Shown here in pieces: positions 2,772-32,710 of a stretch of DNA of 64,000 bases. Position 1 is the stretch's first letter. The number at the start of each line of letters is the position of its first letter. The DNA comes from Dehalococcoidia bacterium (GTDB lineage Bacteria > Chloroflexota > Dehalococcoidia > Lucifugimonadales > UBA3495): NCBI GenBank assembly GCA_965203195.1, contig OZ241860.1, positions 210,774-274,773 of the forward strand, in the 5' to 3' direction. Below the pieces are notes generated by a model. It ran no database searches, was not told the DNA's origin, and saw only the letters and a program-made list of their open reading frames with translations. Both the position numbers and the translations under genes were made by a program.

Positions 2772-3839
2772 GCCGGCGCCCGGCGCGCCCTGATCCCGGC
2801 GCCGCGCCCAATCCGCCCGCCGGATTTTAAAAATCGCCGCCATTTATGACACAGGGCTATCGCATATGGATTTCTCTCCGGCCGTCTTACCGATATACCG
2901 GATTCCAGAAGCCACAATGCAGCTGTATTCGTAGCTGCATTACGAATTCAGTCGTGGCTGTCCGCTAAAACCGGGCCCATATCAAGCGAATCGATCCATA
3001 TGCGATAGCCCTGATTTATGACACCCGCCCCCTTGCGCCCTGAACATCAGTACTGCTAACCTGAAACACGGATGCGGCAACCCGCCCGGCGGCCCGGGGA
3101 ACAGCTGCCCCGACCGCCATCCGCCACAGCCCCGGCGCGGACGCGCGCCCGGCGCCAAAACGGACACCAGCTATGCCTACTCCAATCCGAAATCGACGTC
3201 GTACCACCATCGGGGAAACCATTTCGGGCTAACCACCAAACGGGCCTCCAGGAAACGGCCTAACCCTTGTCGGAACCCAATTTCAGCTGGTCCTGCTTCG
3301 TCGCTGTGTGTATCATACGGCCCGTGTAGTTCTGTGCCAGCCAGCGGGTGTCACCACCGCCCCGTGCCGGAAACGACGGCCCTGAAAAGCTGCCGCCTCC
3401 GGGACACGGAAAACTAGGACGAAAACTCACGCGTTACGCTCTCAGGCCGTAGCGCCGACAACCTGGAAACCCCAAGGCCAGCCCGAGCCTTCCCCGATGC
3501 CATCATCTTGCCAACCACCACTTACCAGCCATCAATCGCCCACCCATCGGAAAGGAGCCGACTTCCCCATGAAAACTTCCCTGCCCCCAACCGCCCGCCC
3601 CCCGCCCGCCGGAACCGCCCTGGTAACCGCAACATCCACGCCAATCAAGGAGCGCCAGTGAATTAAGGCCCCTCGCCAAGCGCATTTTGCCGTCGCCAAC
3701 GGCGGCATCGCATAACCCCCGTCAGTCCGGTGCAAGCCGGCGTCCGGGCATCTTCCCCGCCGGCTGCTCCGCAGCAACAGGCGCTTGCCCCGGATTGCCG
3801 GCCCCTCCCGGACTGGCGGGCGATTTTCACGACGCCCCC
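2772..3839. repeat. Copy A of a ~0.88-kb non-coding inverted repeat (interrupted by a MITE); partner at 31832-32710
   Basis: Its reverse complement aligns by eye along the whole length with 31832-32710, at roughly nine in ten positions plus small indels. The indels shift frame, so ORFs differ between copies (3072..3263 vs 32324..32581). That argues against coding. Confidence 0.85.
2852..3013. mobile_element. MITE-like non-autonomous element, 162 bp, perfect 19-bp terminal inverted repeats, 10-bp target-site duplication
   Basis: Terminal inverted repeat CAGGGCTATCGCATATGGA at 2852-2870, with its exact reverse complement at 2995-3013. Flanking direct repeat ATTTATGACA at 2842-2851 and 3014-3023. 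The paralogous repeat copy (about 32630-32639) has an uninterrupted AATTATGACA site. The interior is AT-richer and has a nested hairpin (AATGCAGCT...AGCTGCATT). Confidence 0.8.
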
Positions 3840-4210
3840 TGGCATATATCCTGCGGCCTCATCGTCTGCGCCCCCGTTGCCATCGCCGCCGTCATGCACG
3901 CTTGCCCAAAGGATTTCGGGCGCCGCCATCCCTGCCACCCGCCTGTCGGGCCTTGAGCCGGCCGTAAGCAACCCGCCGCTCAAAAACGTCCGCGCCATCG
4001 CCGCCGCCCTGAAAGCGCCATCGCCGGCGCTTTTCTCTTTTCATCCCCACTCCCCCGATACCGGCTGACCGGAAACCGCACCCGCCGCCGGGTCGCCCCC
4101 ACGCAAAATTGCCCCCCGGCAACGCCCCCGTGTAGAATGCCGGCGTCCGGCGCCGGACGCTGGACGCCGGCAAACCCACCCGCCAGCCCAACGCCAACGG
4201 AGGCCACCCT

Positions 4211-4630
4211 ATGTATCAGAAACCCACCCTGAGCCTGAAGCAGGTTCGCAATGCGATGAGCGCCATGCTGGACAAGGCCGAAGCCGAACCCGACCGCCCC
4301 TTGGCCATCGCCATCGTTGACGCCGACGCCAAACTGCTCGCCTACGCCCGTATGGACCACTGCCGCGCCCTGCCCCAGCGGATGGCCGTCAGCAAGGCTT
4401 ACACCTCCGCAATGTCCGGCCAGGACTCCGACGCCTACGCCCGCCGCCTTAAGAATGAAAACCGCAGCGTCGCCGACTTCGGCGACCCCCAGCTGGTGGC
4501 CGTGCAGGGCGCCGTGGTGGTGCGCGACCCGGCCACCGACCTGGTGCTGGGCGCCATCGGCGTCAGCGGCCTTACCGCCCAGGAGGACGAGGATCTGGCG
4601 CGCCTGGGCCTGGCCGCCCTGGCCCTGTAA
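4211..4630 (+). CDS. GlcG/HbpS-like (DUF336) heme-binding family protein
   Basis: 139-aa ORF with GGAGG 6 nt upstream of the ATG. The sequence pattern ...IAIVDADAKLLAYARMD...KAYTSA...GAIGVSGLTAQEDEDLA is typical of the GlcG family. Confidence 0.8.
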   Translation: MYQKPTLSLKQVRNAMSAMLDKAEAEPDRPLAIAIVDADAKLLAYARMDHCRALPQRMAVSKAYTSAMSGQDSDAYARRLKNENRSVADFGDPQLVAVQGAVVVRDPATDLVLGAIGVSGLTAQEDEDLARLGLAALAL

Positions 4631-4779
4631 AACCCGGCCCCCGGCAATGCCCCGTCCGCCGCCGGGATGAACAACGCCGGCGGCGGACAGCCGGCCGGCC
4701 GGCGTCCATTCGGCATTCCCGCTACAATAGAAAGAGGCTATGCGCCCCCCACGCCATCCCCGTTGCGAGGTACGCTTTT

Positions 4780-6684
4780 ATGGTTCAGCAGGGACAGATT
4801 GACCATCTTTTGCAGGAGGCCGGCGAAATCCCCCCGCCGCCTTATGTGGCCGCCCAGGCCACCCTGTCCGACTACGACGCCGTCTATCAGCGCTCGGTAG
4901 CCGACCCCGAAGGGTTCTGGGCCGAGGCCGCCGCGGAACTCCACTGGTTCCGCCCCTGGGACGAAGTGTTCCAGTGGGACTACCCCAACTTCCGCTGGTT
5001 CGTCGGCGGCCAAACCAACATTGCCTACAACGCCCTCGACCGCCACCTGGACACCCCCCGCCGCAACAAGGCCGCCCTCATCTGGCTGGGCGAGGACGGC
5101 TCCGAACAGGTCTATACCTACGCCCGCCTCGCCCAGCAGGTCAACCGCATGGCCAACGGCCTCAAGTCCCTCGGCATCGGCAAGGGCGACCGCGTGGTCA
5201 TCTATATGCCCCTAACCCCCGAAGGCGCCATTAGTATGCTGGCCTGCGCCCGCATCGGCGCCATCCACAGCGTCGTCTATGCCGGCTTCAGCGTCGGCAG
5301 CCTCCGCGACCGCATCCAGGACGCCCAGGCCAAAGCCCTCATCACCGGCGACATCGGCTACCGCCGCGGCGGCCGCGTCGACCTCAAAGCCATCGCCGAC
5401 GAAGCCGTCGTCGGCTGCGACACCTTGCAGGCCGTCATCGTCTGGCGCCGCGAACTCCCCCGGACGGACCTGAACGACGGCGAAACCGACTTCGACGAAC
5501 TCCTCGCCAACAGCCCCATCGCTTGTCCCGCCGCAATTATGGACGCCGAGGATCCCCTCTACATCCTCTACACCAGCGGCACCACCGGCAAACCCAAGGG
5601 CGTCGTCCACGTCCACGGCGGCTATATGGTCGGCACCCACTACCACTTCAAAACCTTCTGGGATGTGAAGGACAACGATGTGTTCTGGTGTATGTCCGAC
5701 ATCGGCTGGGTGGTGGGCCACAGCTACATCGTCTATGCGCCCCTGGTCGCCGGCGCCACCACCGTGTTCCGCGAAGGCGCCCCCGACTATCCCCACAACG
5801 CCGTGTTCTACGAAGTCATTGAGAAGTACGGCGTCAATGTGATTTTCACCGCCCCCACCGCCGTGCGGATGCTGATGCGCTACGGCGCTGAACCGGCCCG
5901 CCGCTACAACCTGCGTTCCCTGCGTTTCCTGACCTGCGCCGGCGAGCCCCTGAACCCCGAAGCCCTCCGCTGGGCCTACGAACACATCTGCGGCAACGGC
6001 GAATGGGCGCATATGGTGGACAACTGGTGGCAGACCGAAACCGGCGGCCCCTGCCTCGGCACCACCGCCACGATGCCCACCCGCCCCGGCCGCGTCGGCA
6101 AACCCCTGCCCGGCGCCGTAATGGACATCGTGGACCGCGAAGGCCAGTCCATCGCCGAACCCGACCAGGGCGGCCTCCTGGTCATCCGCCGCCCCTTCCC
6201 CCACTTCTCCCGCACCGTCTGGGGCGACCCTGAACGGTACGCCGACACCTGGCAGCAGGTGCCCGGCGTATATCTTTCCGGCGATGTCGCCCTCCGCGAC
6301 GCCGACGGCTACTATATGGTAGTAGGCCGCGCCGACGATGTGCTCAATGTAGCCGGCCACCGCATCGGTTCCGCCGAGGTAGAAAGCGCCCTGGTGTCCC
6401 ACCCCGAAGTCGCCGAGGCCGCCGTCATCGGCAAACCCGACCAGCTGCGCGGCGAAGTCATCAAGGGCTTCGTAACCCTGCGAATGGGCAGCCAGGGTTC
6501 CGACCGGATGGTCAACGACCTGCAACAGCACGTCCGCCGGGAGCTGGGCCCCATCGCAATGCCCGCGGAAATCGAGTTCACGCCGGCCCTCCCCAAAACC
6601 CGCTCCGGCAAAATAATGCGCCGCCTCCTCAAGGCCCGGGAGCTGGGCCTGGATCCGGGCGACATCACCACCCTGGAGGACTGA
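4780..6684 (+). CDS. acs: Acetyl-CoA synthetase (acetate--CoA ligase)
   Basis: 634 aa with an Acs-type N-terminus (YQRSVADPEGFWAEAA), the AMP-binding motif YTSGTTGKPKG, and the C-terminal PKTRSGKIMRR. Confidence 0.9.
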   Translation: MVQQGQIDHLLQEAGEIPPPPYVAAQATLSDYDAVYQRSVADPEGFWAEAAAELHWFRPWDEVFQWDYPNFRWFVGGQTNIAYNALDRHLDTPRRNKAALIWLGEDGSEQVYTYARLAQQVNRMANGLKSLGIGKGDRVVIYMPLTPEGAISMLACARIGAIHSVVYAGFSVGSLRDRIQDAQAKALITGDIGYRRGGRVDLKAIADEAVVGCDTLQAVIVWRRELPRTDLNDGETDFDELLANSPIACPAAIMDAEDPLYILYTSGTTGKPKGVVHVHGGYMVGTHYHFKTFWDVKDNDVFWCMSDIGWVVGHSYIVYAPLVAGATTVFREGAPDYPHNAVFYEVIEKYGVNVIFTAPTAVRMLMRYGAEPARRYNLRSLRFLTCAGEPLNPEALRWAYEHICGNGEWAHMVDNWWQTETGGPCLGTTATMPTRPGRVGKPLPGAVMDIVDREGQSIAEPDQGGLLVIRRPFPHFSRTVWGDPERYADTWQQVPGVYLSGDVALRDADGYYMVVGRADDVLNVAGHRIGSAEVESALVSHPEVAEAAVIGKPDQLRGEVIKGFVTLRMGSQGSDRMVNDLQQHVRRELGPIAMPAEIEFTPALPKTRSGKIMRRLLKARELGLDPGDITTLED

Positions 6685-6753
6685 CCGCAGAACTGCGCCT
6701 GTTGACGGGCGCGCCGCTACACAGGACAATACGGCAATGAACGGCTAGGATTC

Positions 6754-6942: not shown

Positions 6943-6944
6943 CT

Positions 6945-7379: not shown

Positions 7380-7411
7380 CCATCAAATGGAGACAGCAAA
7401 GGAGCAATGCT

Positions 7412-8873: not shown

Positions 8874-8895
8874 CCCCCAACCCCGCCCCGACCAG

Positions 8896-8925: not shown

Positions 8926-9415
8926 CATCCCCCGACTGGCCGCCGGTTTTCCGCAGCAGCCGGATGCCGTCAATCCGCACCCCCCGGTCCACGGCTTTGC
9001 ACATATCATAGACCGTCAGCGCCGCCACGCTGACCGCCGTCAGCGCTTCCATCTCCACGCCCGTTTGCCCCGAAGTGGTCGCCGTGGCCGTAACGCGGAC
9101 CCGGCTGCCCGGTTCATCCAGAACCAGCGACACATCAACTTTGTTGAGGGGCAGCGGGTGGCACAGGGGAATCAGCTCCGCCGTCCGCTTGGCGCCCATA
9201 ATGCCGGCCAGTTGGGCGATGGTCAGCACATCGCCCTTTTTCATCAGCCCGTCGCGGATCAGCGCCAGCGTGGCCGGTTGCATTGCCACCTCGCCCGTGG
9301 CCGTCGCCATCCGGTCCGTAACGGGTTTCCAGCCCACGTCCACCATACGGGCGCTGCCGTCCTCGGCCAGATGGGTCAGGCGGTCGGCGGGCGGGACGGC
9401 GTTTCCAGTGGTCAT
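8912..9415 (-). CDS. moaC: Cyclic pyranopterin monophosphate synthase MoaC
   Basis: 167 aa. Contains [12 protein letters not shown]...[30 protein letters not shown]...[24 protein letters not shown], the canonical MoaC pattern. Confidence 0.9.
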
Positions 9416-9427
9416 AGCGTATCTCCC

Positions 9428-10444
9428 TTACCCGCCAATCTGGTACATTTCAACTTTGGGACGCGCCCCCGGGCCGGCCTCGGCAATGCCGGCCCGTTCC
9501 TCGGAGTAGCGGTCGCGGCGCCGGCCCCAGACGCCGGCGATGATGCTGCCCAGTTCGGCGTCCGACGCCCCCTGCCGCAGCGGCCCGCGCAAATCCACGC
9601 CGCCAGTGGCGAACAGGCAGGTGTAAAGCCGCCCGTCGGTGGACAGCCGCGCGCGGGTGCAGTCCGCGCAGAAGGGCTGCGTCACCGAGGCGATGACGCC
9701 GATTTCGCCATCGCCGTCGCGGTAACGCCACCGCCGGGCCACTTCGCCCGTATAGTTGGCTTCCGCCGCCTCCAGCGGCAGCTCGGCGTCAATCAGCGCC
9801 ACGATTTCGGCGGCGGACACCACTTCCGCCGGCCGCCAGCCGTTGCGGTTGCCCACATCCATATACTCAATAAAGCGGACAATCTGCCCCGTGCCTTTGA
9901 AATGGCGCGCCAGGTCAACGATGCTATGGTCGTTGACGCCCTTCTGCACTACGGCGTTGATCTTCACCGGGTTCAGCCCGGCGGCGGCCGCCCGGCCAAT
10001 GCCGTCCAGCACCCGCCGGGTTCCGAAACCCCGCCCGTTCATCGCCTTAAAGACGTCCTCGTCCAGCGAGTCCAGGCTCACGGTGACCCGGTGCAGCCCC
10101 GCCTCGGCCAGGGCCGGCGCCTGCTGCGCCAGCAGGTAGCCGTTGGTGGTCAGCGTAATGTCGTCCGCCCCGGGGATGGCGGCCAGCTGCCCGATGAGCC
10201 GGGACAGGTCCGCCCGCAGCAGCGGTTCCCCGCCGGTGATGCGCAGCTTGTTCACCCCCGCGCCCACGAACAGCCCCGCCAGCCGCGCGATTTCCTCAAA
10301 GGTGAGGATTTCCTCTTTGGGCAGAAATTGGTACGCCTCGCCGAAAATCTCCGCCGGCATACAATAGGGGCAGCGGAAATTGCAACGGTCGGTCACGGAA
10401 ATCCGCAAATCCCGCAGCGGGCGTCCCAACAGATCGGTAATCAT
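9428..10444 (-). CDS. moaA: GTP 3',8-cyclase MoaA (radical SAM)
   Basis: 338 aa with the CNFRCPYCMP radical-SAM cluster motif and a C-terminal CxxC cluster (FCADCTRARLSTDGRLYTCLF). Confidence 0.92.
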   Translation of the reverse strand: MITDLLGRPLRDLRISVTDRCNFRCPYCMPAEIFGEAYQFLPKEEILTFEEIARLAGLFVGAGVNKLRITGGEPLLRADLSRLIGQLAAIPGADDITLTTNGYLLAQQAPALAEAGLHRVTVSLDSLDEDVFKAMNGRGFGTRRVLDGIGRAAAAGLNPVKINAVVQKGVNDHSIVDLARHFKGTGQIVRFIEYMDVGNRNGWRPAEVVSAAEIVALIDAELPLEAAEANYTGEVARRWRYRDGDGEIGVIASVTQPFCADCTRARLSTDGRLYTCLFATGGVDLRGPLRQGASDAELGSIIAGVWGRRRDRYSEERAGIAEAGPGARPKVEMYQIGG

Positions 10445-11114: not shown

Positions 11115-12413
11115 CTAAACAACCCCGGCGGCCGCCAGGCCGGCCAGTTCGTCATCGTCCAGCCCCAGCCACCCGCCATACACGGCGGCGTTGTGCTGCC
11201 CCAGGGACGGCCCCATAGCGCGCAGTTCGCCGGGCGTGTCGCTGAATTTAGGCGCCAGCCCCGGCATCCGGGTCGGCCCCAGCTCCGGGTCGTCCAGCGC
11301 CACGATGTCGTTCCGTTCCTGGTAGTGGGGATCGTCCATAATGTCGGCGCTGTTATAGACCGGCCCGACCACGCCGCCGGCGGGTATCAGCTCGTCCATA
11401 ATATCAGCGGCGCTACGGCGCCCCAGCCAGGCTTGCAGGATTTCGTTGAGGGCGTCCTTGTGCTGCAAGCGGGCGGCGTTATCGGCAAACCGGGCGTCGG
11501 CCAGCAGTTCGTCCAGCCCCATAGCCCGCGCCAGTCCTTCCCAGGTGTTTTGAGAGGTTGCGGAGAGGCCCAGCCAGCGGCCGTCGGCGGTGCGGTACAG
11601 GCTGCGCGGCGCCGCGTCGGGAAAATCGTTGCCTACCCGCTCCCGAATTTCCCCCAGCTTGTCGTAGATGGCAAGATGCGGGATGCAGAGGCGAAAGAGC
11701 GGCTCAAAGAGACTCAGGTCAACTACCTGCCCGGCCCCCGGCAGCCCGGCGCGCCGGTCGGCGTCCCGGCGGTAAATCGCCATCATCCCCGCCATCGCTC
11801 CGAACACGCCGGCGATTTCGTCAGCCAGCGGCACCGGCGGCAGATTGGGCGGCGTGTCGGGGAAACCCGTCATGCCAATGTACCCGCTCATGCATTCCGC
11901 AATGGTGCCAAAACCGGGGCGGTCTTTATACGGCCCCGTCTGCCCGAACCCTGAAAAACGCAGCATGACCAGGCCCGGGTTGACCTCCGGGGCGCGCAAA
12001 TCGTCCGGCCCCAGCCCCCACCGTTCCAGAGTGCCGGGCCGGAACCCCTCAATCAGCGCATCGGCCTGCGCCGCCAGCCGCTTCAGCAAATCCCGCCCCT
12101 GCGGCGTCGCCATATTGAGCGTAACCGACTGCTTGTTGCGGGAGTGAACCTTCCACCACAGCGACACGCCCCGGTAAAAAGGCCCCCAGTTCCGCAGCGG
12201 ATCGCCCGCGCCGGGCCGTTCCACCTTGACCACCTCGGCGCCAAAATCGGCCATCAGCGACGACGCCGTGCCGCCGGCCACGATGATGGACAGGTCCAGA
12301 ACCTTCAGCCCCGCCAGGGGGCCGGCGGCCGGCGCGGCGCGGTCGGACGCCTCGGACACCGGATCCGGGGACAGAGAGGAGGCCGGGGATTCGCCGGCGG
12401 ATGGGTCAGTCAT
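11115..12413 (-). CDS. Family III (CaiB/BaiF) CoA-transferase
   Basis: 432 aa. LAGLKVLDLSIIVAGGTASSLMADFGAEVVKVERPGAGDPLRNW is the hallmark N-terminal motif. Confidence 0.88.
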   Translation of the reverse strand: MTDPSAGESPASSLSPDPVSEASDRAAPAAGPLAGLKVLDLSIIVAGGTASSLMADFGAEVVKVERPGAGDPLRNWGPFYRGVSLWWKVHSRNKQSVTLNMATPQGRDLLKRLAAQADALIEGFRPGTLERWGLGPDDLRAPEVNPGLVMLRFSGFGQTGPYKDRPGFGTIAECMSGYIGMTGFPDTPPNLPPVPLADEIAGVFGAMAGMMAIYRRDADRRAGLPGAGQVVDLSLFEPLFRLCIPHLAIYDKLGEIRERVGNDFPDAAPRSLYRTADGRWLGLSATSQNTWEGLARAMGLDELLADARFADNAARLQHKDALNEILQAWLGRRSAADIMDELIPAGGVVGPVYNSADIMDDPHYQERNDIVALDDPELGPTRMPGLAPKFSDTPGELRAMGPSLGQHNAAVYGGWLGLDDDELAGLAAAGVV

Positions 12414-15391: not shown

Positions 15392-15602
15392 GTTTATCGC
15401 CCGGTCGCTGACCTCCAACCCCGACGCGGTGCGGGTCACGAAGTCCGACGAGGGCGACCAGATCGTAATACGCCTGGAAGTGGCGCCCGAAGACAAGGGC
15501 AAAGTCATCGGGCGACAGGGCCGGGTGGCGCAGGCAATGCGCACGCTGCTCCGGGTGGCCGCCGTCAAGGACGGCACCCGCGCCGTGCTGGAGATTGTCT
15601 AA
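15375..15602 (+). CDS. KH-domain RNA-binding protein (YlqC/UPF0109 family)
   Basis: MKELIEFIARSLTSNPDAV...EDKGKVIGRQGRVAQAMRTLL contains the KH GxxG motif. Its position between rpsP and rimM is conserved. Confidence 0.85.
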   Translation: MKELIEFIARSLTSNPDAVRVTKSDEGDQIVIRLEVAPEDKGKVIGRQGRVAQAMRTLLRVAAVKDGTRAVLEIV

Positions 15603-15690
15603 ACGCCGCGGCAATGGACGCCGGCGTCGCACGCCAGCGTCCCCGCCACGCCGGCCGGATCCGCCGCCCGCCCCGGAAGCCCCGGCCGGG

Positions 15691-16712: not shown

Positions 16713-16716
16713 CGGG

Positions 16717-16977
16717 TCAGCGACCTCCGCTCACGGGGGGAATCAGGCAAACTTCATCGCCGGCCTGTAGGGGCTGGTCGTCGTCCGCGTACTCGGCGTT
16801 GACGGCAACCACGATACGCACCTCCGGAGGCGCCAGGCGTGGGTAGGCGGCCCGCACCGCCGCCACCAGGTCGCCGACCAGGGCGCCATCGGGCAGGGTC
16901 ACCGCCACCACGGAGGCGCCGGCGCGTTCCCGGTAGAGGGCGAAAAGGCGGACTTCGAAGCGCATTGTACTCATCAC
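16717..16977 (-). CDS. moaD: MoaD/ThiS-family sulfur carrier (C-terminus ...PPVSGGR)
   Basis: 86 aa with a beta-grasp pattern (FALYRERAG...AVNAEY...GDEVCLIPPVSGG). It lies immediately upstream of moaE. One residue follows the Gly-Gly. Confidence 0.75.
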   Translation of the reverse strand: MMSTMRFEVRLFALYRERAGASVVAVTLPDGALVGDLVAAVRAAYPRLAPPEVRIVVAVNAEYADDDQPLQAGDEVCLIPPVSGGR

Positions 16978-17261
16978 ACCAAAGGATTATGGGCAAGGGT
17001 GTCAATTGCGAAAAAGCCGGTGCGCCGGTCGGGAACAGGTTTAGCCGACTTGCCGACCTGAACGGGGATAAAAGGCCGCTCTTGCTCAATTCCAACGCCC
17101 GGAGCCGGGCCGATTTTAGCGCCCCACCACGACTGGCGCAAACCGCCGGCGCCGGCGCATAATATCCCGCCGGCAGAACCGCCCGGCTACCCTACCCCCG
17201 CGCATTCCAAAACAACCGGAACCCCATACCTAGCGCCCGCCTGCTGCCCGGAGATGCCCCG

Positions 17262-18712: not shown

Positions 18713-19741
18713 ATGTTTGACCGCTACCGGGATTATCTGGAAACCGCGCTGGCCCGCGCCGTGCCCCGCGCGGAACTGCATCCCGTCAACGCCGTGCTGC
18801 GCTACCATCTGGGCTGGTCAGACCGGGACGGCAACCCGTCGCCCACGCCGGCCTCCCAGGGCAAGGCGCTGCGGCCTACCCTCTGTATGTTCGCCTGCGA
18901 CGCCCTGGGGGGAGAACCCCGCCGCGCCGCGCCCGCCGCCGCCGCCCTGGAACTGATCCACAACTTCTCTCTGATCCACGACGACATCCAGGACGAGGGC
19001 CTGGAGCGCCGCCACCAGCCCACGGTATGGGCGCTTTGGGGAACGGCAAAGGCGTTGGCGGCCGGCAACGCCATGCAGTCGCTAGGCGACCTGGCTACGG
19101 CGCGCGGCAACCGGAGCGGCGTCCCCGGCGTCCCCGCCGCCGTTGCCGTCCAGATTGCCGGGCTGCTGACGCAAAGCTGCTTGGAGATGATTGAGGGGCA
19201 GTGCCGGGACTTGCAGTTTGAGCGCCGCGCCGTCATCGGCATTGACGAATACCTGGATATGATTGCGCTGAAAACCGGGGCGCTGATACGCAGCAGCTTG
19301 GTCATCGGGGCCACCATCGCTACCGGCGATGCCGATACCATCGCCGGCGTGGCCCGGTTCGGACGCGCCATCGGGCGGCTGTTCCAAATCCGGGACGACT
19401 ACCTGGGCATCTGGGGCGATGAGGCCATCACCGGCAAATCTACCGACAGCGACATCGTGCAGCGTAAAAAGACCTACCCTGTGGTGTACGCTTTTCAGCA
19501 ATCGGCCGGCGTCCACCAGGAGGAACTCCGGCGTCTCTACGGGCAGGAAGCTTTGGATGAAGGCGATGTGGACCGCGTCCTCAACATTCTGGACCACATC
19601 GGCGCGGCGCAGCAAACCGACGAGCTTACCGAAGCCACCGCTCGGGAAGCGCGCTCCGCCCTGGCCACGCTGGAACTGCCGCCCTGGGCCACTAAGGAAG
19701 CCCGCAGTCTGATTGACTTTATGGCGTACCGGCTGTTCTAG
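18713..19741 (+). CDS. Polyprenyl diphosphate synthase (FPP/GGPP synthase family)
   Basis: First Asp-rich motif FSLIHDDIQDE and second motif FQIRDDYLG. I prefer the start at MFDRYRDYLE (ATG 18713) over the track start at 18614, but this is uncertain. Confidence 0.85.
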   Translation: MFDRYRDYLETALARAVPRAELHPVNAVLRYHLGWSDRDGNPSPTPASQGKALRPTLCMFACDALGGEPRRAAPAAAALELIHNFSLIHDDIQDEGLERRHQPTVWALWGTAKALAAGNAMQSLGDLATARGNRSGVPGVPAAVAVQIAGLLTQSCLEMIEGQCRDLQFERRAVIGIDEYLDMIALKTGALIRSSLVIGATIATGDADTIAGVARFGRAIGRLFQIRDDYLGIWGDEAITGKSTDSDIVQRKKTYPVVYAFQQSAGVHQEELRRLYGQEALDEGDVDRVLNILDHIGAAQQTDELTEATAREARSALATLELPPWATKEARSLIDFMAYRLF

Positions 19742-19862
19742 CCGGCGCCGGCAGCCATCCCGTGGCCGGCGCAATGCTTCACTCTGCCCCTGCCCTTGCC
19801 TCTGCCGCCCCTGTTGAATAACCTCCAACTGCCCCGCCTGGCGCTACCCGGGAGACGCAACG

Positions 19863-20675
19863 ATGACTACCAACGCCAATGCCGCCACCATAACCACCAC
19901 CCGGTCGGGCCGGCCATTGCCCAAAGACGCCCCCGCGCCCGCCCCGGCCCCGGCCGCATTCCCCGACTTCCCGCCCCGCAACGATCTGATGAACTCCGAA
20001 AATCTCCACGACTACGGCAACCAGCCCGCCCTGCGCCTCCACCTGGGCAACCCGGACACTACCGTAGTACTCGGCGAAACGCCCATCTACTGGCGCATCC
20101 CCACCGGACGGGCCGGCGTGCGCGTGCCGGACCTGCTCATCGCCTTCAACATCCGCCGCGCCCTCATCAGCGCCCAGAAGGGATTTTCCATCGCCGACCA
20201 GGGCAAGCCCCCCGATTTTGTGCTGGAAGTGGCCTCGGACTCCACCGCCCGCAACGATGAAACCGCCAAAAGGCGCGACTACGCCGCTTTTGGCGTAACG
20301 GAATACTGGCTCTTTGACCCCGACTGGGGGCAGCGTTACGAGCGGGGGCTGATAGGCTGGACGCTGGTGCAGGGCAGCTACGAACCCATTGCCATTCACC
20401 AGTACGGGCCGGAGCTGCACTACGGGTGGAGCGATGTTTTGGGGCTGTATGTCTGCTGGGAATATGGCCGGCTGCGCTGGTACGACCCGGCCGTGGGGTA
20501 TCTGCGGACACACGATGAGGAACGCAGCGGACGCATCGCCGCGGAGGATCGGCTGGAGGCAGCCGAAGCGCAGCGGGCCGAGGAGCGTAGCGGACGCATC
20601 GCCGCCGAAGCGGAAGCGCAGTACTTGCGGGAGGAAGTCACCCGCCTGCGCGCCACAAATGAGGACGAAACATAA
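19863..20675 (+). CDS. Uma2-family (DUF820) PD-(D/E)xK endonuclease, copy 1
   Basis: 270 aa. PDLLIAFNI...PDFVLEVASDST...D...KRRDYAAFGVTEYWLFDP is the Uma2 pattern. The C-terminal coiled-coil tail has one full 21-aa repeat. Confidence 0.8.
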   Translation: MTTNANAATITTTRSGRPLPKDAPAPAPAPAAFPDFPPRNDLMNSENLHDYGNQPALRLHLGNPDTTVVLGETPIYWRIPTGRAGVRVPDLLIAFNIRRALISAQKGFSIADQGKPPDFVLEVASDSTARNDETAKRRDYAAFGVTEYWLFDPDWGQRYERGLIGWTLVQGSYEPIAIHQYGPELHYGWSDVLGLYVCWEYGRLRWYDPAVGYLRTHDEERSGRIAAEDRLEAAEAQRAEERSGRIAAEAEAQYLREEVTRLRATNEDET

Positions 20676-20920
20676 GCCGCGGCGGCGTACTGTCGCCACG
20701 CCGCCGCCCGGACGCTATCATCCCGAAGGATCGGGAACGACCGGAAAAGGAAGCCCGCAGTCTGATTGACTTTATGGCGTACCGGCTGTTCTAGCCGGCG
20801 CCGGCGCCATCCCGTGGCCGGCGCAATGCTTTGCTCTGCCCCTGACCTTGCTCTTGCCCATGACGCCCCTGTTGAATACCCTCCAACTGCCCCGCCGGGC
20901 GCTACCCGGGAGACGCAACG

Positions 20921-21856
20921 ATGACTACCAACGCCAATGCCGCCGCCACAACCACTACCCGGCCGGGCCGGCCATTGCCCAAAGACGCCCCCACGCCCGC
21001 CCCGGCCCCGGCCGCATTCCCCGACTTCCCGCCCCGCAACGATCTGATGAACTCCGAAAATCTCCACGACTACGGCAACCAGCCCGCCCTGCGCCTCCAC
21101 TTGGGCAACCCGGACACTACCGCAGTACTCGGCGAAACGCCTATCTACTGGCGCGTCCCCACCGGACGGGCTGGCGTGCGCGTGCCGGACCTGCTCATCG
21201 CCTTCAACATCCGCCGCGCCCTCATCAGCGCCCAGAAGGGATTTTCCATCGCCGACCAGGGCAAACCTCCCGATTTTGTGTTGGAAGTGGCCTCGGACTC
21301 CACCGCCCGCAACGATGAAACCGCCAAAAGGCGCGACTACGCCGCTTTTGGCGTAACGGAATACTGGCTCTTTGACCCCGACTGGGGGCAGCGCTACGAG
21401 CGGGGGCTGATAGGCTGGACGCTGGTGCAGGGCAGCTACGAACCCATTGCCATTCACCAGTACGGGCCGGAGCTGCACTACGGGTGGAGTGATGTTTTGG
21501 GGTTGTATATCTGCTGGGAATATGGCCGGCTGCGCTGGTACGACCCGGCCGTGGGGTATCTGCGGACACACGATGAGGAACGCAGCGGACGCATCGCCGC
21601 CGAGGATCGGCTGGAAGCAGCCGAAACGCATCAGGCTGAGGAGCGCAGCGGGCGCATCGCCGCGGAGGATCGGCTGGAGGCAGCCGAAACGCAGCGGGAC
21701 GAGGAACGCAGCGGGCGCATCGCCGCCGAGGATCGCTTGGAAGCAACCGAAACACAACGGGCCGAGGAGCGCCGCGGGCGCATCGCCGCCGAAGCGAAAG
21801 CGCAGCGCCTGCTGGAGGAACTCGCCCGCCTGCGCGCCGCCGAGGACGAGGCATAA
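20921..21856 (+). CDS. Uma2-family (DUF820) PD-(D/E)xK endonuclease, copy 2 (expanded C-terminal repeats)
   Basis: 311 aa and near-identical to copy 1 over the nuclease core. It has three full 63-nt (21-aa) EERSGRIAAEDRLEAAETxxx repeats starting at 21575, 21638 and 21701, plus a partial one. Confidence 0.8.
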   Translation: MTTNANAAATTTTRPGRPLPKDAPTPAPAPAAFPDFPPRNDLMNSENLHDYGNQPALRLHLGNPDTTAVLGETPIYWRVPTGRAGVRVPDLLIAFNIRRALISAQKGFSIADQGKPPDFVLEVASDSTARNDETAKRRDYAAFGVTEYWLFDPDWGQRYERGLIGWTLVQGSYEPIAIHQYGPELHYGWSDVLGLYICWEYGRLRWYDPAVGYLRTHDEERSGRIAAEDRLEAAETHQAEERSGRIAAEDRLEAAETQRDEERSGRIAAEDRLEATETQRAEERRGRIAAEAKAQRLLEELARLRAAEDEA

Positions 21857-21972
21857 GTCGCGGCAGCACCTTGTTGTCACGCCGCCGCCTGCTCGCTATC
21901 ATTCCCGAATCCTTCGGCGACAACCGACCGGAAAACGCCAGAAAAAAACGGAACCACCGGAGACCGTCAATT

Positions 21973-27959: not shown

Positions 27960-28151
27960 AGCCGGGGCAACGGCCTGACGTCAAAGCCGGTCAGTCACAA
28001 TACGATCAGGATCAACAGGGCAAGCCGGGCAGCGGCGGGCGTTGCCCGCGCCCGGAACAAGGCGGGCGGCGTGTGCTATTATGGGGCGGGCCGGCATAGC
28101 TGATGCTGTCGGCCCGTTGCCACCCCGAACCGCACAGGTGGAGGTATTCCC

Positions 28152-29168: not shown

Positions 29169-29257
29169 ACGGGGGCAACCTGACGGGAGCAACCGGGCGG
29201 GGCAACGCCGCGTCTCATTCCCTTTCCGCCGCGCCGAAGGTCAAGGAGAGCATTGCT

Positions 29258-30406
29258 ATGGAACCCTTTGTCATCAATATCAGCGACGAGACGCTGGACG
29301 ATTTGCGCCATCGTCTGGGGCAGACCCGGTGGCCCGACGAGATGCCCGGCGTGGGCTGGGATTACGGTTCCAACCTGGCCTATATCAGGGAGCTGGTGGA
29401 GTACTGGCGCACGGAATTTGACTGGCGCGCCCAGGAAAAGAAGCTCAACGCTTTCCGGCATTACAAGTCGGCGGTGGACGGGCTGGACATTCATTTCATC
29501 CAGGAGCGGGGGACGGGGCCGAGTCCGATGCCGCTGGTGATTACGCACGGCTGGCCCAGCACTTTCTTTGAGATGACGAAAATCATTCCGCTGCTGGCCG
29601 ACCCCGGCGGGCACGGGGGCGACCCGGCGGACGCCTTTGATGTGGTGGCGCCGTCGCTGCCCGGTTTCGGCTTTTCGCAGGCGGCGCAAGCGCCGGGGAT
29701 GCAGGTGCAGAAAGTCGCCGACCTGTGGGCCAAGTTGATGACAGAGCATCTGGGCTACGGCAGGTTTGCGGCCCAGGGCGGGGACATTGGCGCCGGGGTG
29801 ACTTCCCGGCTGGGCTACGCTCATGCCGACAAGATGATCGGCATTCACCTGACTTCCATAACCCGGCCCACGCCGTACCTGGGCCCCGGTTCGCAGCCGT
29901 TGACCGCCGCCGAGCAGGCCCATTCCGACCAGCGGGAACGGTGGCAGCAAAGCGAGGGCGGTTACAGCCACATTCAAGGCACCAAGCCGCAAACCCTGTC
30001 CTATGGCCTCAACGATTCGCCGGCGGGGCTGGCCGCCTGGATTGTGGAGAAGTATCGCACCTGGAGCGACTGCAACGGCGATGTGGAGAGCCGGTACAGC
30101 AAAGACGAGCTGCTCACTACCGTGACCATTTACTGGGCCACGCAGACGATTGGGTCGTCGGTGCGGATGTACAAGGAAAACCAGAGTTCGGTCTGGGAGA
30201 TGGGCCGGGACGAGAAGGTGGGCACGCCGGCGGGGATGGCGATGTTCCCGCAGGAAATTGCCCGCCCGCCCCGGGAGTGGGCGGAGCGTTCCTACGATGT
30301 GCGGCGGTGGCAGGAAATGCCGCGGGGCGGACACTTTGCGGCGCTGGAGGAACCGGAGCTGCTGGCTCACGAAATCCGCGCGTTTTTCCGCCCGTTCCGG
30401 GGCTGA
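29258..30406 (+). CDS. Epoxide hydrolase (microsomal-type, EHN N-terminal domain + alpha/beta fold)
   Basis: 382 aa. FVINISDETLDDLRHRL...RWPDE...WDYG, the HGWP oxyanion motif (ITHGWPSTFFE), and the nucleophile GGDIGA. Confidence 0.85.
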   Translation: MEPFVINISDETLDDLRHRLGQTRWPDEMPGVGWDYGSNLAYIRELVEYWRTEFDWRAQEKKLNAFRHYKSAVDGLDIHFIQERGTGPSPMPLVITHGWPSTFFEMTKIIPLLADPGGHGGDPADAFDVVAPSLPGFGFSQAAQAPGMQVQKVADLWAKLMTEHLGYGRFAAQGGDIGAGVTSRLGYAHADKMIGIHLTSITRPTPYLGPGSQPLTAAEQAHSDQRERWQQSEGGYSHIQGTKPQTLSYGLNDSPAGLAAWIVEKYRTWSDCNGDVESRYSKDELLTTVTIYWATQTIGSSVRMYKENQSSVWEMGRDEKVGTPAGMAMFPQEIARPPREWAERSYDVRRWQEMPRGGHFAALEEPELLAHEIRAFFRPFRG

Positions 30407-30499
30407 CCGCAAGCTCCAGGATAACGGCCGGACAGCGGGGGCCGGGGACAATGGCGATTGTCCCCGGCCCCCGGCGTCGTCGGGTGGCGGCGTGGCCGG

Positions 30500-31399
30500 T
30501 CAGCGGCGCAGGAAATCGACGATATGCGGGTTCACCGCCTCCGGTTTTTCCTGGTGCATGAAGTGGCCGGTTCCGGGGATGATGACCCGTTCCAGACCGC
30601 CGGCGAAGTAGGCGTCGGTGGCGGCGCTCTGGAAGGCTTCCAGACGCCGGGGGCGGTCGCGGGTGCCGTGCAGGGCCAGGGTGGGGACAGTTACGGGGCC
30701 GGCGTCGATGCGGGCCTGGTCGGCGCGCACGGCGGCGTCGCTTTGGGATGCGTCGTAGCGGGCGCGGTAGTAGCCCAGGGCGGCCTGGACCACGCCGGGC
30801 TGCCGGAAGGTGGCGCGGATGCTCTCCAGCGCCGCCGCCGGGATGTCCCACTCGGGCGCCGCCCAGCGCCACCATTGCTCAATGAAGGCGAAGTCGTTGT
30901 GGGCCACGGTTTCCTCAGCGAAGGGCATCTGGAAATAGTAGGAATGCCAGGTGCCTTGCAGGTACTGGAAGTCGCGGCTCAATTCCCGGTCCACCTGGCC
31001 GGCGGCGATGGTGACCAGGCGGCTGACTTTTTCCGGGGCCAGGACGGTGGCGCCGACCACGGCGCCGGCGCCCCAGTCGTTGCCGATGAGGCAGGCCCGT
31101 TCCGCGCCTAAGGCATCGATCAGGGCCACGGCGTCCCGGGCCAGCAGGGCTGGGTGGTAGCGTCCGTCGGCCGGGGCGGTGGTGGGCGCATAGCCGCGCA
31201 TAAAGGGGGCCACGGCGCGGAAGCCGGCGGCGGCCAGGTCGGGCAGCAGGTGGCGGAAGGACCAGGCGTGGTCGGGGAAGCCGTGCAGGCAAAGGGCCAG
31301 GGGGCCTTCGCCCATTTCCAGGTAGTGGAAGTTGATGCCGTTGGCGTTGACGCTGCCGGCGGTGAAGTCGGTCATCGCATTCATTATTGATCCGTTCAT
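30500..31399 (-). CDS. Alpha/beta hydrolase (epoxide-hydrolase/haloalkane-dehalogenase-like)
   Basis: INFHYLEMGEGPLALCLHGFPDHAWSFRH, nucleophile elbow IGNDWGA, and C-terminal GTGHFMHQEKPE. The start is ATG 31399 or 31384. The track ORF extends to 31987 only because it runs into the repeat and rpsT antisense. Confidence 0.8.
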   Translation of the reverse strand: MNGSIMNAMTDFTAGSVNANGINFHYLEMGEGPLALCLHGFPDHAWSFRHLLPDLAAAGFRAVAPFMRGYAPTTAPADGRYHPALLARDAVALIDALGAERACLIGNDWGAGAVVGATVLAPEKVSRLVTIAAGQVDRELSRDFQYLQGTWHSYYFQMPFAEETVAHNDFAFIEQWWRWAAPEWDIPAAALESIRATFRQPGVVQAALGYYRARYDASQSDAAVRADQARIDAGPVTVPTLALHGTRDRPRRLEAFQSAATDAYFAGGLERVIIPGTGHFMHQEKPEAVNPHIVDFLRR

Positions 31400-31467
31400 C
31401 CGGGATCCGTAGCTCCGGCGCTGAAACGCCGGGGGCATCGCGGCGCAGAGGGCTTCGGGGAGGCTGG

Positions 31468-31725
31468 CTACCGGATGGCGCGGATCCGGTTGAGGGCGAC
31501 GGCGAGGCGGGCTTTGCGGCGGGAGGCGTTGTTCCGGTGCAGCACGCCCTTGCGGACGGCGATGTCCAGCATACTCATGGCGTTGCGGACGGCGTCCTCG
31601 GATTCGGGGGCGGCGACGGACAGGGCGCGGCGGGCGCGCCCGACGGCGGTGCGGGTGGCGCGGCGCACGCTCATATTGCGGGCGTAGCGTTTCACGGATT
31701 GGCGGTGGGCTTTGGGTGCCGGCAA
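31468..31725 (-). CDS. rpsT: 30S ribosomal protein S20 (TTG start)
   Basis: The TTG at 31725 is preceded by AGGAG. The product (M)PAPKAHRQSVKRYARNMSVRRATRTAVGRARRAL...RKARLAVALNR matches the basic S20 pattern. Confidence 0.85.
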   Translation of the reverse strand: MPAPKAHRQSVKRYARNMSVRRATRTAVGRARRALSVAAPESEDAVRNAMSMLDIAVRKGVLHRNNASRRKARLAVALNRIRAIR

Positions 31726-31831
31726 AGGGAATCTCCTGTAGGGTAGGTTGGCGACAGGAATGATAGCAGGAGGAGCGCGAAATGTCATCCGCCGTCATCG
31801 TGGCACCGTTATCATAACGAAGGGAGTTTCC

Positions 31832-32710
31832 CGGGGCGCGTCGTGAAATCGCCCGCCAGTCCGGGAGGGGCCGGCAATCCGGGGCAAGGGCCCGTGGCCT
31901 GCGGAGCAGGCGGGCGGTGAGGATGCCCGGATGCCGGCTTGCACCGGACCGACGGGGGTTATGCGATGCCGCCGTTGGCGACGGCACAATGCGCTTGGCG
32001 AGGGGCCTTAATTCACTGGCGCTCCTTGATTGGCGTGGATATTGCGGTTACCAGGGCGGTTCCGGCGGGCGGGGGGCGGGCGGTTGGGGGGATGGCTACG
32101 GTTTTCATAGGGAAGTCGGCTCCTTTTCGGTGCGTGGGTGGTTGGCAAATTGATGGCATCGGGGAAGGCTCGGGCTGGCCTTTTGGGTTCCAGGTTGTCG
32201 GCGCTACGGCCTGAGAGCGTAACGCGTGAATTTCGTCCTAGTTTTCCGTGTCCCGGAGCGGCGGCTTTTGAGGGCCGACAGCCCGGCACGGGGCGGTGGT
32301 GACATCCGCTGGCTGGCACAGAACTACACGGGCCGCACGATACATACAGCGACGAAGCAGGACCAGCTGAAATTGGGTTCCGACAAAGGGTTAGGCCGTT
32401 TCCTGGAGGCCCGTTTGGTGGTTAGCCCGAAAGGTTGTTCCCCGATGGTGGTACGACGTCGATTTCGGATTGGATTGGGCATTGCGGTGTCCGTTTTGGC
32501 GCCGGGCGCGCGTCCGCGCCGGGGCTGTGGCGGATGGCGGTCGGGGCAGCTGTCCCCGGGCCGCCGGGCGGGTTGCCGCATCCGTGTTTGAGGTTAGCAG
32601 TACTGATGTTCAGGGCGCAAGGGCGCGGATGTCATAATTGGCGGCGAATTTTAAAATCCGACGGGCGGATTGGGCGCGGCGCCGGGATCAGGGCGCGGCG
32701 GGCGCCGGCG
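31832..32710. repeat. Copy B of the ~0.88-kb non-coding inverted repeat (uninterrupted)
   Basis: Reverse complement of 2772-3839 minus the MITE. It retains the intact target site (about 32630-32639). Confidence 0.85.

Follow-up and report, generated by a model that had tools for sequence, protein, structure and literature searches.

Among described systems, the REPINs of REP-RAYT systems are close counterparts of a repeat unit that occurs twice in 64,000 nt of DNA from a Dehalococcoidia bacterium (the whole stretch analysed, here called the window). As in REPINs, the 3' ~105 nt of the unit form a doublet of inverted ~30-nt arms, each with a small GC hairpin and a GNRA-type loop (CCGG-UGCAAG-CCGG), and related palindromes of ~110 nt are abundant and extragenic in sister species. 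There is also a singlet-like copy (L094, position 7229), which is the one solo repeat seen outside 0.9-kb units in this species, no target duplication was seen, and the copies are apparently vertically inherited and fixed. Unlike a REPIN, the unit is 8 times longer and has a solo arm separated from a complete doublet by ~750 nt of unrelated cargo, and no independent short doublets were seen in ~0.33 Mb of DNA from this species. No Y1 transposase was found among the Pfam calls of the examined loci (+/-10 kb around a few genes). A second counterpart is provided by MITE-derived mosaic non-autonomous transposons and mobile insertion cassettes, among them the TIMEs of the Tn3 family, whose transcription activation is the subject of a results section in Szuplewska et al. 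(2014; PMC4133298). The unit is like TIMEs in having terminal inverted repeats (TIRs) of ~31-36 nt and no transposase, in carrying outward promoter-like sites and, like TIMEs mobilising adjacent DNA, in having a solo repeat on one side of its cargo and a complete miniature element on the other. The unit differs from them in having no 5-6-bp target duplication and a cargo that is non-coding save for a 30-codon ORF, and its mobility is putative.

Polyproline or arrest-type leader peptides, such as mgtP of the Salmonella mgtCBR leader and TnaC, couple translation to transcription. The short ORF of the unit is similar in having a strong ribosome-binding site, in being conserved only N-terminally up to PPP and in lying in C-rich RNA predicted to be unstructured, with strong hairpins after it. 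It is dissimilar in that no terminator/antiterminator fold was found, the downstream genes have promoter-like sites, and the ORF is found not in the leader of a single operon but ~500 nt inside a unit that is repeated and looks mobile. A study in E. coli (PMC5021804) treats EF-P with regard to the coupling by which ribosomes keep terminator hairpins from forming and Rho from loading. Large non-coding RNAs (OLE, GOLLD, ROOL and HEARO) and group II introns resemble the unit in size (0.6-0.9 kb), in being non-coding and intergenic and in occurring in several copies, but the unit has no Rfam match, no significant thermodynamic or covariation support and a very narrow phylogenetic range.

The two copies in the window, A and B, belong to a set of eight or more fixed copies of a probably transposon-like non-coding repeat, and they are no special pair for flipping the 28-kb segment between them. 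They are placed as follows:

2773-3850, plus strand: copy A, ~0.9 kb without a 162-bp MITE; its MITE-free ortholog is L002 389-1282.
31826-32709, minus strand: copy B, between dtd and rpsT; orthologs occur in nine of ten related assemblies.

The copies are reverse complements of about 91% identity. Alignment by blastn gave 90.6% identity over 834 nt (3016-3842 against 32637-31831) and 95% over 80 nt (2772-2851 against 32709-32630), in keeping with the preliminary description of inverted ~0.88-kb repeats matching at about nine in ten positions. A repeat search of the window returned ten collinear inverted-repeat pieces (I1-I10; 44-186 nt, 86-97% complementary) that pair 2762-3826 with 31846-32719, and a 38-mer of the unit occurs exactly twice, versus 0 expected from 100 shuffles; these two are the only copies in the window. 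Both are intergenic and each is followed by a co-oriented gene, HbpS/GlcG-like from 4211 after copy A and S20 (rpsT) from 31725 after copy B, as had been described. The indels between the copies are scattered, as was also said, but the range of 1-4 nt given for them is slightly off because, besides several of 1 nt, there are single indels of 3 and 21 nt. They do disrupt most reading frames, with the exception that the 3- and 21-nt indels lie in or just before the short ORF and keep its frame. Six-frame Pfam scans of the unit found no families and 1-nt indels segregate among copies, so the view that the unit is not protein-coding is essentially correct; the accompanying statement that no ORF is conserved is not quite right because the short ORF is kept at the peptide level. 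That no composite transposon carries the 28 kb was likewise supported, and searches of the repeat unit gave no plasmid or phage matches.

In closely related Dehalococcoidia/SAR202 assemblies, the unit occupies at least eight unrelated intergenic loci:

glcG: window copy A and L002.
dtd/rpsT: window copy B and nine orthologs.
NUDIX: L094.
pdxS: L095.
Aldedh: L096.
Beside a convergent 206-aa gene: L097/L098.
H+-PPase: L219.
Beside an IS: L220.

A 145-nt fragment was found in addition. About 19 further copies are known only as spurious antisense "proteins" (distinct antisense-ORF products), which match no DNA among the loci searched and include a divergent subfamily; a 3.78-Mb contig encodes both P0008, the antisense product of window copy B, and a second antisense-ORF product. 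The earlier proposal of several copies of an unknown repeat family has thus held. The 22-kb loci of 78 other species gave no blastn match to the unit and no nhmmer match to its body, and the full unit is, judging from these sequence searches, restricted to one Dehalococcoidia/SAR202 lineage. In other species it is absent upstream of pdxS and Aldedh, where the upstream regions are short (~270 nt for pdxS in L045 and ~450 nt for Aldedh in L078). The rpsT locus is the only one for which many strains were sampled; each of them has the unit there, and no empty site was seen within the species.

Copy A is interrupted by a secondary insertion that lies outside the repeat family:

2852-3013, no strand: MITE of 162 bp with perfect 20-nt TIRs, CAGGGCTATCGCATATGGAT.

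The MITE is flanked by a 10-bp target duplication read from the sequence (ATTTATGACA, at 2842-2851 and 3014-3023) and was inserted at the -35 hexamer of copy A's outward promoter-like site. The orthologous contig of another strain (L002) has copy A without the MITE, and L220 contains a second copy of the 162-bp MITE together with a ~1.2-kb IS that has the same ends.

Complete copies of the unit carry TIRs of 31-36 nt at both ends (36 nt at 86% complementarity in L220, 31 nt at 84% in L095), spaced 841-843 nt. L094, L095, L219 and L220 have a 24-nt TIR pattern at both of their ends; with up to 3 mismatches allowed, this pattern was found in ~0.33 Mb of same-species DNA at element ends only, plus the one solo copy. 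Every copy has a sharp right boundary. On the left, four of the eight loci, both window copies among them, have a degenerate terminal repeat; its intact counterpart in L094, L095, L219 and L220 reads GGGCGTGTCGCCAAACCGCCCGCC. The terminal repeats in the window are:

2798-2823, plus strand: degenerate left terminal repeat of copy A, GGCGCCGCGCCCAATCCGCCCGCCGG, with 4 mismatches to the 18-nt core.
3808-3839, plus strand: right terminal repeat of copy A, CCGGACTGGCGGGCGATTTTCACGACGCCCCC, with one T more than other copies.
32658-32683, minus strand: degenerate left terminal repeat of copy B, assigned by alignment only because the pattern search did not detect it at up to 4 mismatches.
31834-31865, minus strand: right terminal repeat of copy B; the plus strand reads GGGCGCGTCGTGAAATCGCCCGCC..., with 0 mismatches to the 24-nt TIR pattern.

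Target-site duplications were looked for and found at none of the copies, and no direct repeat adjoins the ends in L094, L095, L219 or L220, where the last has only a chance-compatible 4-nt CTAT at a 2-nt offset; because the copies are old, a short target duplication could have decayed. Neither an autonomous partner nor a transposase with the same ends was found in ~5.4 Mb of loci, and the IS copies adjoining the elements have unrelated ends. The ends also appear to lack Tn3-type features (a 38-bp repeat ending in TAAG). TIRs, dispersed copies and the lack of an internal transposase are what would be expected of a MITE-, MIC- or TIME-like element, and the missing target duplication is not.

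The 3' part of each copy is a palindrome:

3718-3820, no strand: REPIN-like 3' palindrome of copy A, with arms CCCGTCAGTCCGGTGCAAGCCGGC and GCCGGCCCCTCCCGGACTGGCGGG.
31852-31956, no strand: REPIN-like 3' palindrome of copy B, from the inverted-repeat search, with weak homology to the L045 palindromes.

The arms within the 3' ~105 nt are 24-31 nt long at 72-77% complementarity, and the fold has a z-score of -4.6. The ~110-nt palindromes of L045, a locus in another species, have perfect 29-35-nt arms and number six in 22 kb, and matches to such palindromes occur in the loci of 20 other species. With nhmmer, the 3' palindrome aligned weakly to those of L045 (E = 9e-4 to 9e-3), a link that is significant in one direction only, as the reverse search from the small palindromes did not match the element; by manual count, the arms agree at 23/29 positions. 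Upstream of pdxS, L045 has a ~110-nt palindrome where L095 has the 0.9-kb unit, and the left end is alignable. Neither the REPIN-like palindrome nor the terminal repeats figured in the preliminary description.

A complete unit begins with the left terminal repeat of ~30 nt, which is followed by an AT-rich palindrome bearing an outward promoter-like site, an inward promoter-like site that varies from weak to strong, and a ~440-nt C-rich non-coding body with a highly conserved core of ~84 nt. An unstructured C-rich stretch with a strong ribosome-binding site and a short ORF (M..PTARPPP...) comes next, and the ~105-nt REPIN-like palindrome, whose outer arm is the right terminal repeat, closes the unit. 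The corresponding features are:

2818-2839, no strand: conserved imperfect palindrome of copy A, CGCCGGATTTTAAAAATCGCCG, immediately within its left end; also in L220, L094 and L219.
2824-2852, minus strand: outward promoter-like site of copy A, GTGTCA-17-TAAAAT, 9/12; also in copy B and L095.
32629-32657, plus strand: outward promoter-like site of copy B, ATGTCA-17-TAAAAT, 9/12, towards dtd.
3033-3062, plus strand: inward promoter-like site of copy A, weak, TTGCGC-N18-TAACCT, 6/12.
32591-32620, minus strand: inward promoter-like position of copy B, weak.
3064-3833, plus strand: C-rich conserved body of copy A, from AAACACGG to TTTCACGAC; putative transcript.
31840-32589, minus strand: conserved body of copy B, by alignment.
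3284-3367, plus strand: most conserved core of copy A, CAGCTGGTCCTGCTTCGTCGCTGT...CACCACCGCCCCGTGC, with a predicted hairpin.
32286-32369, minus strand: most conserved core of copy B, as in copy A.
3551-3661, plus strand: Shine-Dalgarno AAAGGAG (3551-3557) and 30-codon ORF (3569-3661) of copy A, MKTSLPPTARPPPAGTALVTATSTPIKERQ and stop.
32013-32126, minus strand: Shine-Dalgarno (32126-32120) and 31-codon ORF (32108-32013) of copy B, MKTVAIPPTARPPPAGTALVTAISTPIKERQ and stop.

The palindrome at 2818-2839 looks like an operator site. The core has long invariant runs, and helices 16-18 are predicted in it.

Sequence comparison revealed mosaicism among the copies. Window copy B shares 92% identity with L220 and L098, two copies at other loci, and only 81-92% with its nine positional orthologs. 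The flanking genes are 90-99% identical at third codon positions, and a 21-nt deletion is common to window copy B, L094 and L095 only. Likeness between loci often exceeds likeness within a locus, and gene conversion is therefore indicated. No presence/absence polymorphism among strains was seen at the one locus sampled in many strains, so any mobility need not be recent. What the sequences show directly is the family with its ends and distribution, the mosaicism and the lack of inversion; mobility, a mobilising enzyme and any transcription or translation are inferred.

The reading that we favour, and hold to be reasonably likely, is that a single dispersed, non-autonomous element of ~0.9 kb, bounded by REP/TIR sequences, gave rise to copies A and B as old insertions that are now fixed. 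The element would have spread in trans through an enzyme recognising its terminal repeats, for which a transposase or a REP-associated tyrosine transposase are candidates; alternatively or additionally, it may have spread by recombination between dispersed REP-like sequences. The insertions would then have become fixed, and the copies would since have exchanged sequence via gene conversion.

A possible but clearly less probable explanation is that the unit is a multi-copy functional gene or cis-regulatory cassette with its own promoter, a long leader RNA and a short leader/arrest peptide (M..PTARPPP). A polyproline stall would couple translation to transcriptional read-through into the gene downstream, via Rho or hairpin attenuation, in an EF-P- or proline-dependent manner; the REP-like ends would account for copying alone, and this explanation is compatible with the favoured one. 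AAAGGAG and ATG are present in 19/19 copies, and three different 3-nt in-frame indels fall at codons 4-5 of the ORF, which is conserved only through M..PTARPPP and has a tail that is frameshifted or replaced in five copies. Variant states fall at codon position 3 in 8/10 cases in the eight codons PPTARPPP (binomial P = 0.0034) and in 0/8 in the 17-codon tail (Fisher P = 0.001 versus PPTARPPP), in a codon-position test that was post hoc, run once frame and region had been picked, and on DNA that also resembles the TIR core. The ORF region, C-rich and G-poor, is less structured than shuffled sequence (z = +2.8), and the 3' part has strong structure. Downstream of the ORF, no canonical terminator was found in the contexts of copies A and B, L098 and L095. 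In L098, an 11/12 promoter-like site (TTGACA-18-TATTAT) stands exactly before the conserved body, and L097 has TTGACA at the same position, but the inward promoter is weak (6/12) in most copies. In seven of the eight copies, the unit and the gene after it point the same way (one-sided binomial P = 0.035), which would also fit a regulatory role; one copy, at the L097/L098 locus, abuts a convergent gene. Both rpsT and glcG have their own promoter-like sites 3' of the unit, a terminator-like hairpin separates copy A from glcG, and sister species lack the unit at orthologous genes. The divergent subfamily has kept the core almost unchanged, with its antisense translation ARGGGD[IT]RWLAQNYTGR..HTATKQDQL; among strains, the body changes about as fast as third codon positions do.

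It is improbable that the unit represents a new class of large structured non-coding RNA with several gene copies, a suggestion of the preliminary description, even though its non-coding body of ~760 nt has defined ends and is similar in size to OLE, GOLLD and ROOL. Neither copy matched an Rfam family at gathering score in the window, and at E <= 10 matches were at chance level only. Fold z-scores were -0.9 for the whole unit and -0.9 to -1.8 for the body (-1.2 to -1.8 for the 5' body), the palindrome alone being thermodynamically significant. RNAalifold predicted 188 pairs with 99% of cells paired, of which 142 never vary. Six pairs changed on both sides, versus 2.6 +/- 1.2 in shuffles and 0-2 in slid controls, a comparison in which the shuffle control overstates the support for covariation because the sequences are closely related and mosaic; the reverse strand gave five such pairs and a lower energy. 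Pairing on this strand survives three one-sided changes in the core hairpin (U-A to U-G, G-U to A-U and U-A to U-G, at pairs 246-256, 247-255 and 248-254), and the two longest invariant blocks are predicted to pair together. The covariation is thus marginal and equalled on the opposite strand, and the single-lineage range is unlike that of known large RNA classes.

Reversible inversion of the 28-kb segment, with the two copies existing or functioning as its substrate, was also suggested at the outset and is very improbable. Two inverted repeats of ~0.88 kb at ~91% identity are in principle long enough for RecA-mediated inversion, and the copies do recombine, in that they exchange sequence with other copies. 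Nonetheless, gene order across copy B is collinear with the window in nine of ten related assemblies, where dtd lies outside and rpsT, the abhydrolase gene and the hopanoid genes lie inside; the tenth has an IS-mediated truncation at copy B and no inversion. All nine informative assemblies have the window orientation at copy B, as does L002 at copy A, and no recombinase was noticed among the ORFs scanned next to either copy. It is incidental that A and B, in inverted orientation, bracket 28 kb of housekeeping genes, because the family has at least eight loci in both orientations.

A simple old segmental duplication, a relic with no other copies, would fit the two copies alone within the window and is ruled out by the unit's presence at six or more other loci and by about 19 copies besides.

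Two observations count somewhat against the favoured reading: the constraint on the peptide and a core kept across subfamilies suggest, at the level of sequence comparison, that the cargo of the element is more than junk.

The inverted pair reported in the preliminary description is real: a repeat search aligns window 2762-3826 with 31846-32719 as ten collinear inverted pieces of 86-97% complementarity, blastn matches the two copies over 834 nt at 90.6% identity plus 80 nt at 95%, and the window holds exactly two occurrences of a 38-mer of the unit (by chance, none is expected). The statement that both copies are intergenic also holds. They do not form a pair, however; the 0.9-kb unit is a family, found at eight or more loci, in unrelated contexts of related assemblies, and in antisense-ORF products from further copies. 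The unit is a genuine repeat. We favor, with some confidence, the reading that it is of an ordinary kind, a non-autonomous family bounded by REP/TIR sequences (TIR, terminal inverted repeat) and specific to one lineage, in which copies A and B are two fixed insertions. Their opposite orientation, 28 kb apart, is happenstance. The features of the window are as follows.

2773-3850, plus strand: copy A, with the amidase region on one side and the GlcG/HbpS-like gene on the other
31826-32709, minus strand: copy B, between dtd (D-Tyr-tRNA deacylase) and rpsT
2852-3013, within copy A: 162-bp MITE with perfect 20-nt TIRs
3284-3367 (copy A) and 32369-32286 (copy B): conserved core of ~84 nt, the most conserved stretch of the unit
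4011-4034 and 4109-4138: promoter-like sites and hairpin region between copy A and glcG
31760-31788: promoter-like site of rpsT, ATGACA-17-TATCAT with TG, 10/12
32268-32588, plus strand: antisense ORF over copy B

The S20 protein is identical across ten related assemblies. In nine of these the dtd-rpsT interval carries the unit, at 84-93% identity; L086, the tenth, retains only its last 58 nt, the rest having been removed by an IS. Further loci were found by looking up the peptide of the unit's 30-31-codon ORF, which gene callers sometimes report, and its relatives. Antisense ORFs led to two more loci and to a 145-nt fragment of the unit.

L094: unit upstream of a NUDIX hydrolase gene
L095: unit upstream of pdxS
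L096: unit upstream of an aldehyde dehydrogenase gene
L097/L098: unit beside a convergent 206-aa gene
L219: unit upstream of an H+-pyrophosphatase gene; found via antisense ORFs
L220: unit adjoining an IS; found via antisense ORFs

The unit is co-oriented with the next gene in seven of the eight loci. The "genes" called in public assemblies across the unit are antisense ORFs of up to 247 aa (P0006-P0029; P0028 has 247 aa), and they are annotation artefacts, since different copies place them in different frames. When the antisense translation of the core was used as a protein query, 20 products were obtained, 19 of which match none of the copies' DNA compared. Among these 19 is a clearly divergent subfamily (P0015, P0020-23, P0025, and P0029), one member of which shares a contig with P0008, the antisense ORF product of copy B.

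An acs-anchored search gave metagenome-assembled genomes labeled Dehalococcoidia, "Chloroflexi bacterium," and "SAR202 cluster" at 70-93% protein identity; several of their isolate names (SB06xx, IRC4, RHO) may point to bins from sponge symbionts. Synteny at the acs loci of 78 related species ends just upstream of acs, short of the glcG-upstream region. The 22-kb loci of 78 other species gave no blastn match to the unit and no nhmmer match to its body. Exact 23-mers had no matches in genome and metagenome contig collections, exact seeds had none in viral contigs, plasmid and phage searches matched nothing, and a core 18-mer found 120 loci in metagenome contigs, all chance matches. The corresponding upstream regions of other species are short (pdxS, ~270 nt in L045; aldehyde dehydrogenase, ~450 nt in L078). 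The 0.9-kb unit thus seems to be restricted to a single lineage at the species level.

All copies share a sharp right boundary, ...GGCGGGCGATTTCACGAC, and in many of them GCGCCC comes next. The left boundary in L094, L095, L219, and L220, GGGCGTGTCG[CT]CAAA[CT]CGCCCGCC, matches the right end in reverse complement; this left repeat is degenerate in copies A and B. By repeat search the TIR arms, 841-843 nt apart, are 36 nt long in L220 (86% complementarity) and 31 nt long in L095 (84%). In same-species DNA a 24-nt TIR pattern (at most three mismatches) occurs only at element ends, plus one solo copy.

L094, 7229-7265: solo left terminal repeat GAGCGTGTCGCCAAATTGCCCGTCATTCCGGCGCC, immediately following the NUDIX gene; no second arm is close by

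At its 3' end the unit has a long palindrome of ~105 nt whose outer arm doubles as the right terminal repeat. The unit is thus laid out as a solo arm, cargo, and a complete REPIN-like doublet. Such a layout is a known product of recombination or of mobilization by small inverted-repeat elements (PMC4133298; for REPINs, PMC3116915). Palindromic elements are abundant in other species: six lie in 22 kb of L045, matches occur in the loci of 20 other species, and REPIN/MITE-like palindromes are also present in L023, L082, L011, L072, L041, L074, and other Dehalococcoidia loci. Those of L045 are ~110-130 nt long, with perfect 29-35-nt arms (CCGTCGTTCCGGCGAAAGCCGGAATCCAG) and a small hairpin in each arm.

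L045, palindromic elements: 577-708, 3939-4067, 9336-9462, 11951-12068, 15557-15686, 16949-17066

The 3' palindrome of the unit aligns weakly with the ~110-nt palindromes of L045 (nhmmer, E ~1e-3), the arms agreeing at 23 of 29 positions by hand count. At the pdxS-upstream site that is occupied by the 0.9-kb unit in L095, the orthologous position has one of these palindromes, and the two left ends are alignable. If the solo arm recombined with the inner arm of like orientation, the cargo would be lost and just such a small palindrome would remain.

We infer mobility, a mobilizing enzyme, and expression for the unit; searches for a target-site duplication at its ends and, within the loci compared, for an autonomous partner found neither. 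On three independent occasions an IS has landed in, or immediately beside, an end of the unit (L086 ~9130-9860, L098 4270-5457, and L220 4692-5878), which suggests that IS elements prefer the palindromic ends. One ~1.19-kb IS (GCGTACCCACTTT...) lies at the left end of the unit in L098 and 22 nt from its right end in L220. This IS was rejected as the autonomous partner, since the ends of the IS copies adjoining three elements are unrelated to those of the unit.

The copies have exchanged sequence. Third codon positions of the flanking genes are 90-99% identical among ten strains, and the rpsT-locus loci are collinear at 94-96% identity, with elements that are only 81-95% alike. Copy B is nearest to copies at other loci (L220, 92.3%; L098, 92.2%), and the unit of L002, the glcG locus of another strain, is 94-95% identical to units at the rpsT and aldehyde dehydrogenase loci and 94.3% to its own ortholog. 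A 21-nt deletion is common to copy B, L094, and L095, and a hairpin-top variant to copy B, L089, and L094. Such mosaicism, with variant blocks common to different loci, indicates gene conversion. Between orthologous units the rate of change in the body is close to neutral; it is higher in the 3' third.

The unit is unusual in the size and nature of its cargo, in an apparently selected 13-residue polyproline motif, and in its invariant core. The earlier judgment that the element is probably non-coding is borne out by a six-frame Pfam scan, which found no protein families, and by single-nucleotide indels, present in some copies and not in others, within the first ~440 nt, but it does not extend to a short ORF with a peptide-level signature in PPTARPPP. 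In all 19 copies AAAGGAG is followed by ATG after 10-11 nt, counted from the end of AAAGGAG (hexamer-plus-one). The peptide reads M-[KT]-T-x(1-3)-[LIP]-PPTARPPP and is variable beyond; it ends in ...AGTALVTAISTPIKERQ in 14 copies and is frameshifted or replaced after PPP in five, and additional peptide variants have TPTARPPP. Every indel at codons 4-5 is of 3 nt. The eight codons of PPTARPPP have 10 variant states, of which 8 are synonymous changes at position 3 (binomial P = 0.0034, post hoc), against none of eight at position 3 in the 17-codon tail (Fisher P = 0.001, post hoc). Peptide-level selection on the polyproline motif, with a free tail, is therefore apparent, although the DNA of PPTARPPP resembles the terminal-repeat core, which calls for caution. 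Leader and arrest peptides likewise combine a selected motif with a free tail. At the ORF stop, and overlapping it, lies a second AAGGAG, after which GTG-AAT-TAA forms a mini-ORF of two codons (window 3649-3666 and 32025-32008) that is lost in L090, L091, and L093.

An inward promoter-like site lies exactly before the conserved body (11/12 in L098; TTGACA in L097) and reaches only 6/12 in most copies, including A and B; a putative transcript would begin at AAACACGG. The left end has a conserved outward-facing site (9/12), whose -35 hexamer is where the MITE lies in copy A. The core has invariant runs of up to 28 nt, and the divergent subfamily keeps its antisense translation nearly unchanged while adjacent sequence diverges. 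TGGCAC in the antisense core was considered as a sigma-54-like site and dismissed on visual inspection (no GC at -12).

It is conceivable, though unlikely, that the unit is a mobile regulatory cassette. The REP/TIR-bounded element would bring its own promoter and a conserved ~440-nt leader, whose core hairpin would bind a protein or ligand; M..PTARPPP would act as a polyproline arrest peptide that responds to the activity of EF-P or to the supply of proline and so controls transcription into whichever gene is downstream. Copied before rpsT, pdxS, hppA, glcG, and the NUDIX hydrolase and aldehyde dehydrogenase genes, and kept uniform by gene conversion, it would wire housekeeping genes into one translational-status regulon. 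Two findings call for caution on any leader-peptide role of the short ORF: rpsT and glcG each have promoter-like sequence of their own beyond the unit, on its downstream side, and predictions on the window copies and further copies gave no canonical terminator after the ORF. Copy A and glcG are separated by a terminator-like hairpin.

A structured non-coding RNA, one of the options raised earlier, is disfavored, as the evidence for folding is weak. The fold z-score is -0.9 for the whole unit, -1.2 to -1.8 for the 5' body, +2.8 for the ORF region (less structured than chance), and -4.6 for the palindrome in the 3' part. RNAalifold proposes 188 pairs, of which 142 never vary and six change on both sides (2.6 +/- 1.2 in shuffles; five on the reverse strand). 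An Rfam search of the unit gave no match, in keeping with the earlier report of no group II intron, RNase P, or tmRNA signatures, and ruled out group I/II introns, RNase P, tmRNA, HEARO, and similar families.

The suggested reversible 28-kb inversion was not seen in the assemblies compared, which would miss rare events: all nine informative ones agree with the window in having rpsT, the abhydrolase gene, and the hopanoid genes on the inner side and dtd on the outer side, and L002 keeps the window arrangement at copy A. A decayed transposase or other known coding relic was rejected on the empty six-frame Pfam scan.

The MITE in copy A belongs to a different family from the 0.9-kb unit. A 10-bp target duplication, ATTTATGACA, read from the sequence, brackets it, and L002 has copy A without it. 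A second MITE copy, 90% identical, lies at L220 2206-2368. The 22-nt end of the MITE also bounds a ~1.2-kb IS (L220 2379-3592) whose transposase has DDE_Tnp_1_assoc and DDE_Tnp_1, and this IS is probably its autonomous parent. Elsewhere in the window, the coding strands of 1-6700 are C-rich, with a GC skew near -0.2 over the amidase and acs genes; the unit in its "sense" orientation has the same skew. A ~1058-bp tandem duplication occupies 19694-21889 (300 nt at 95% and 59 nt at 100% identity), together with 63-nt tandem repeats (21569-21792) that resemble a repetitive coding region.

Annotators can mask the 0.9-kb unit as a repeat, where public assemblies now call spurious antisense genes, and the 28-kb segment should not be taken as a switchable cassette. 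As a derivative of REPIN-like palindromes that bears cargo, the unit is a clean case; it comes from a Dehalococcoidia/SAR202 lineage that is uncultivated and has relatives known mostly as metagenome bins. Sequence exchange between its copies is clearly visible, and a polyproline motif of 13 residues is apparently under selection within a repeat. If the peptide and core are not functional, the unit is an ordinary lineage-specific repeat; if they are, it would show how a mobile element can spread a translational sensor over a genome.
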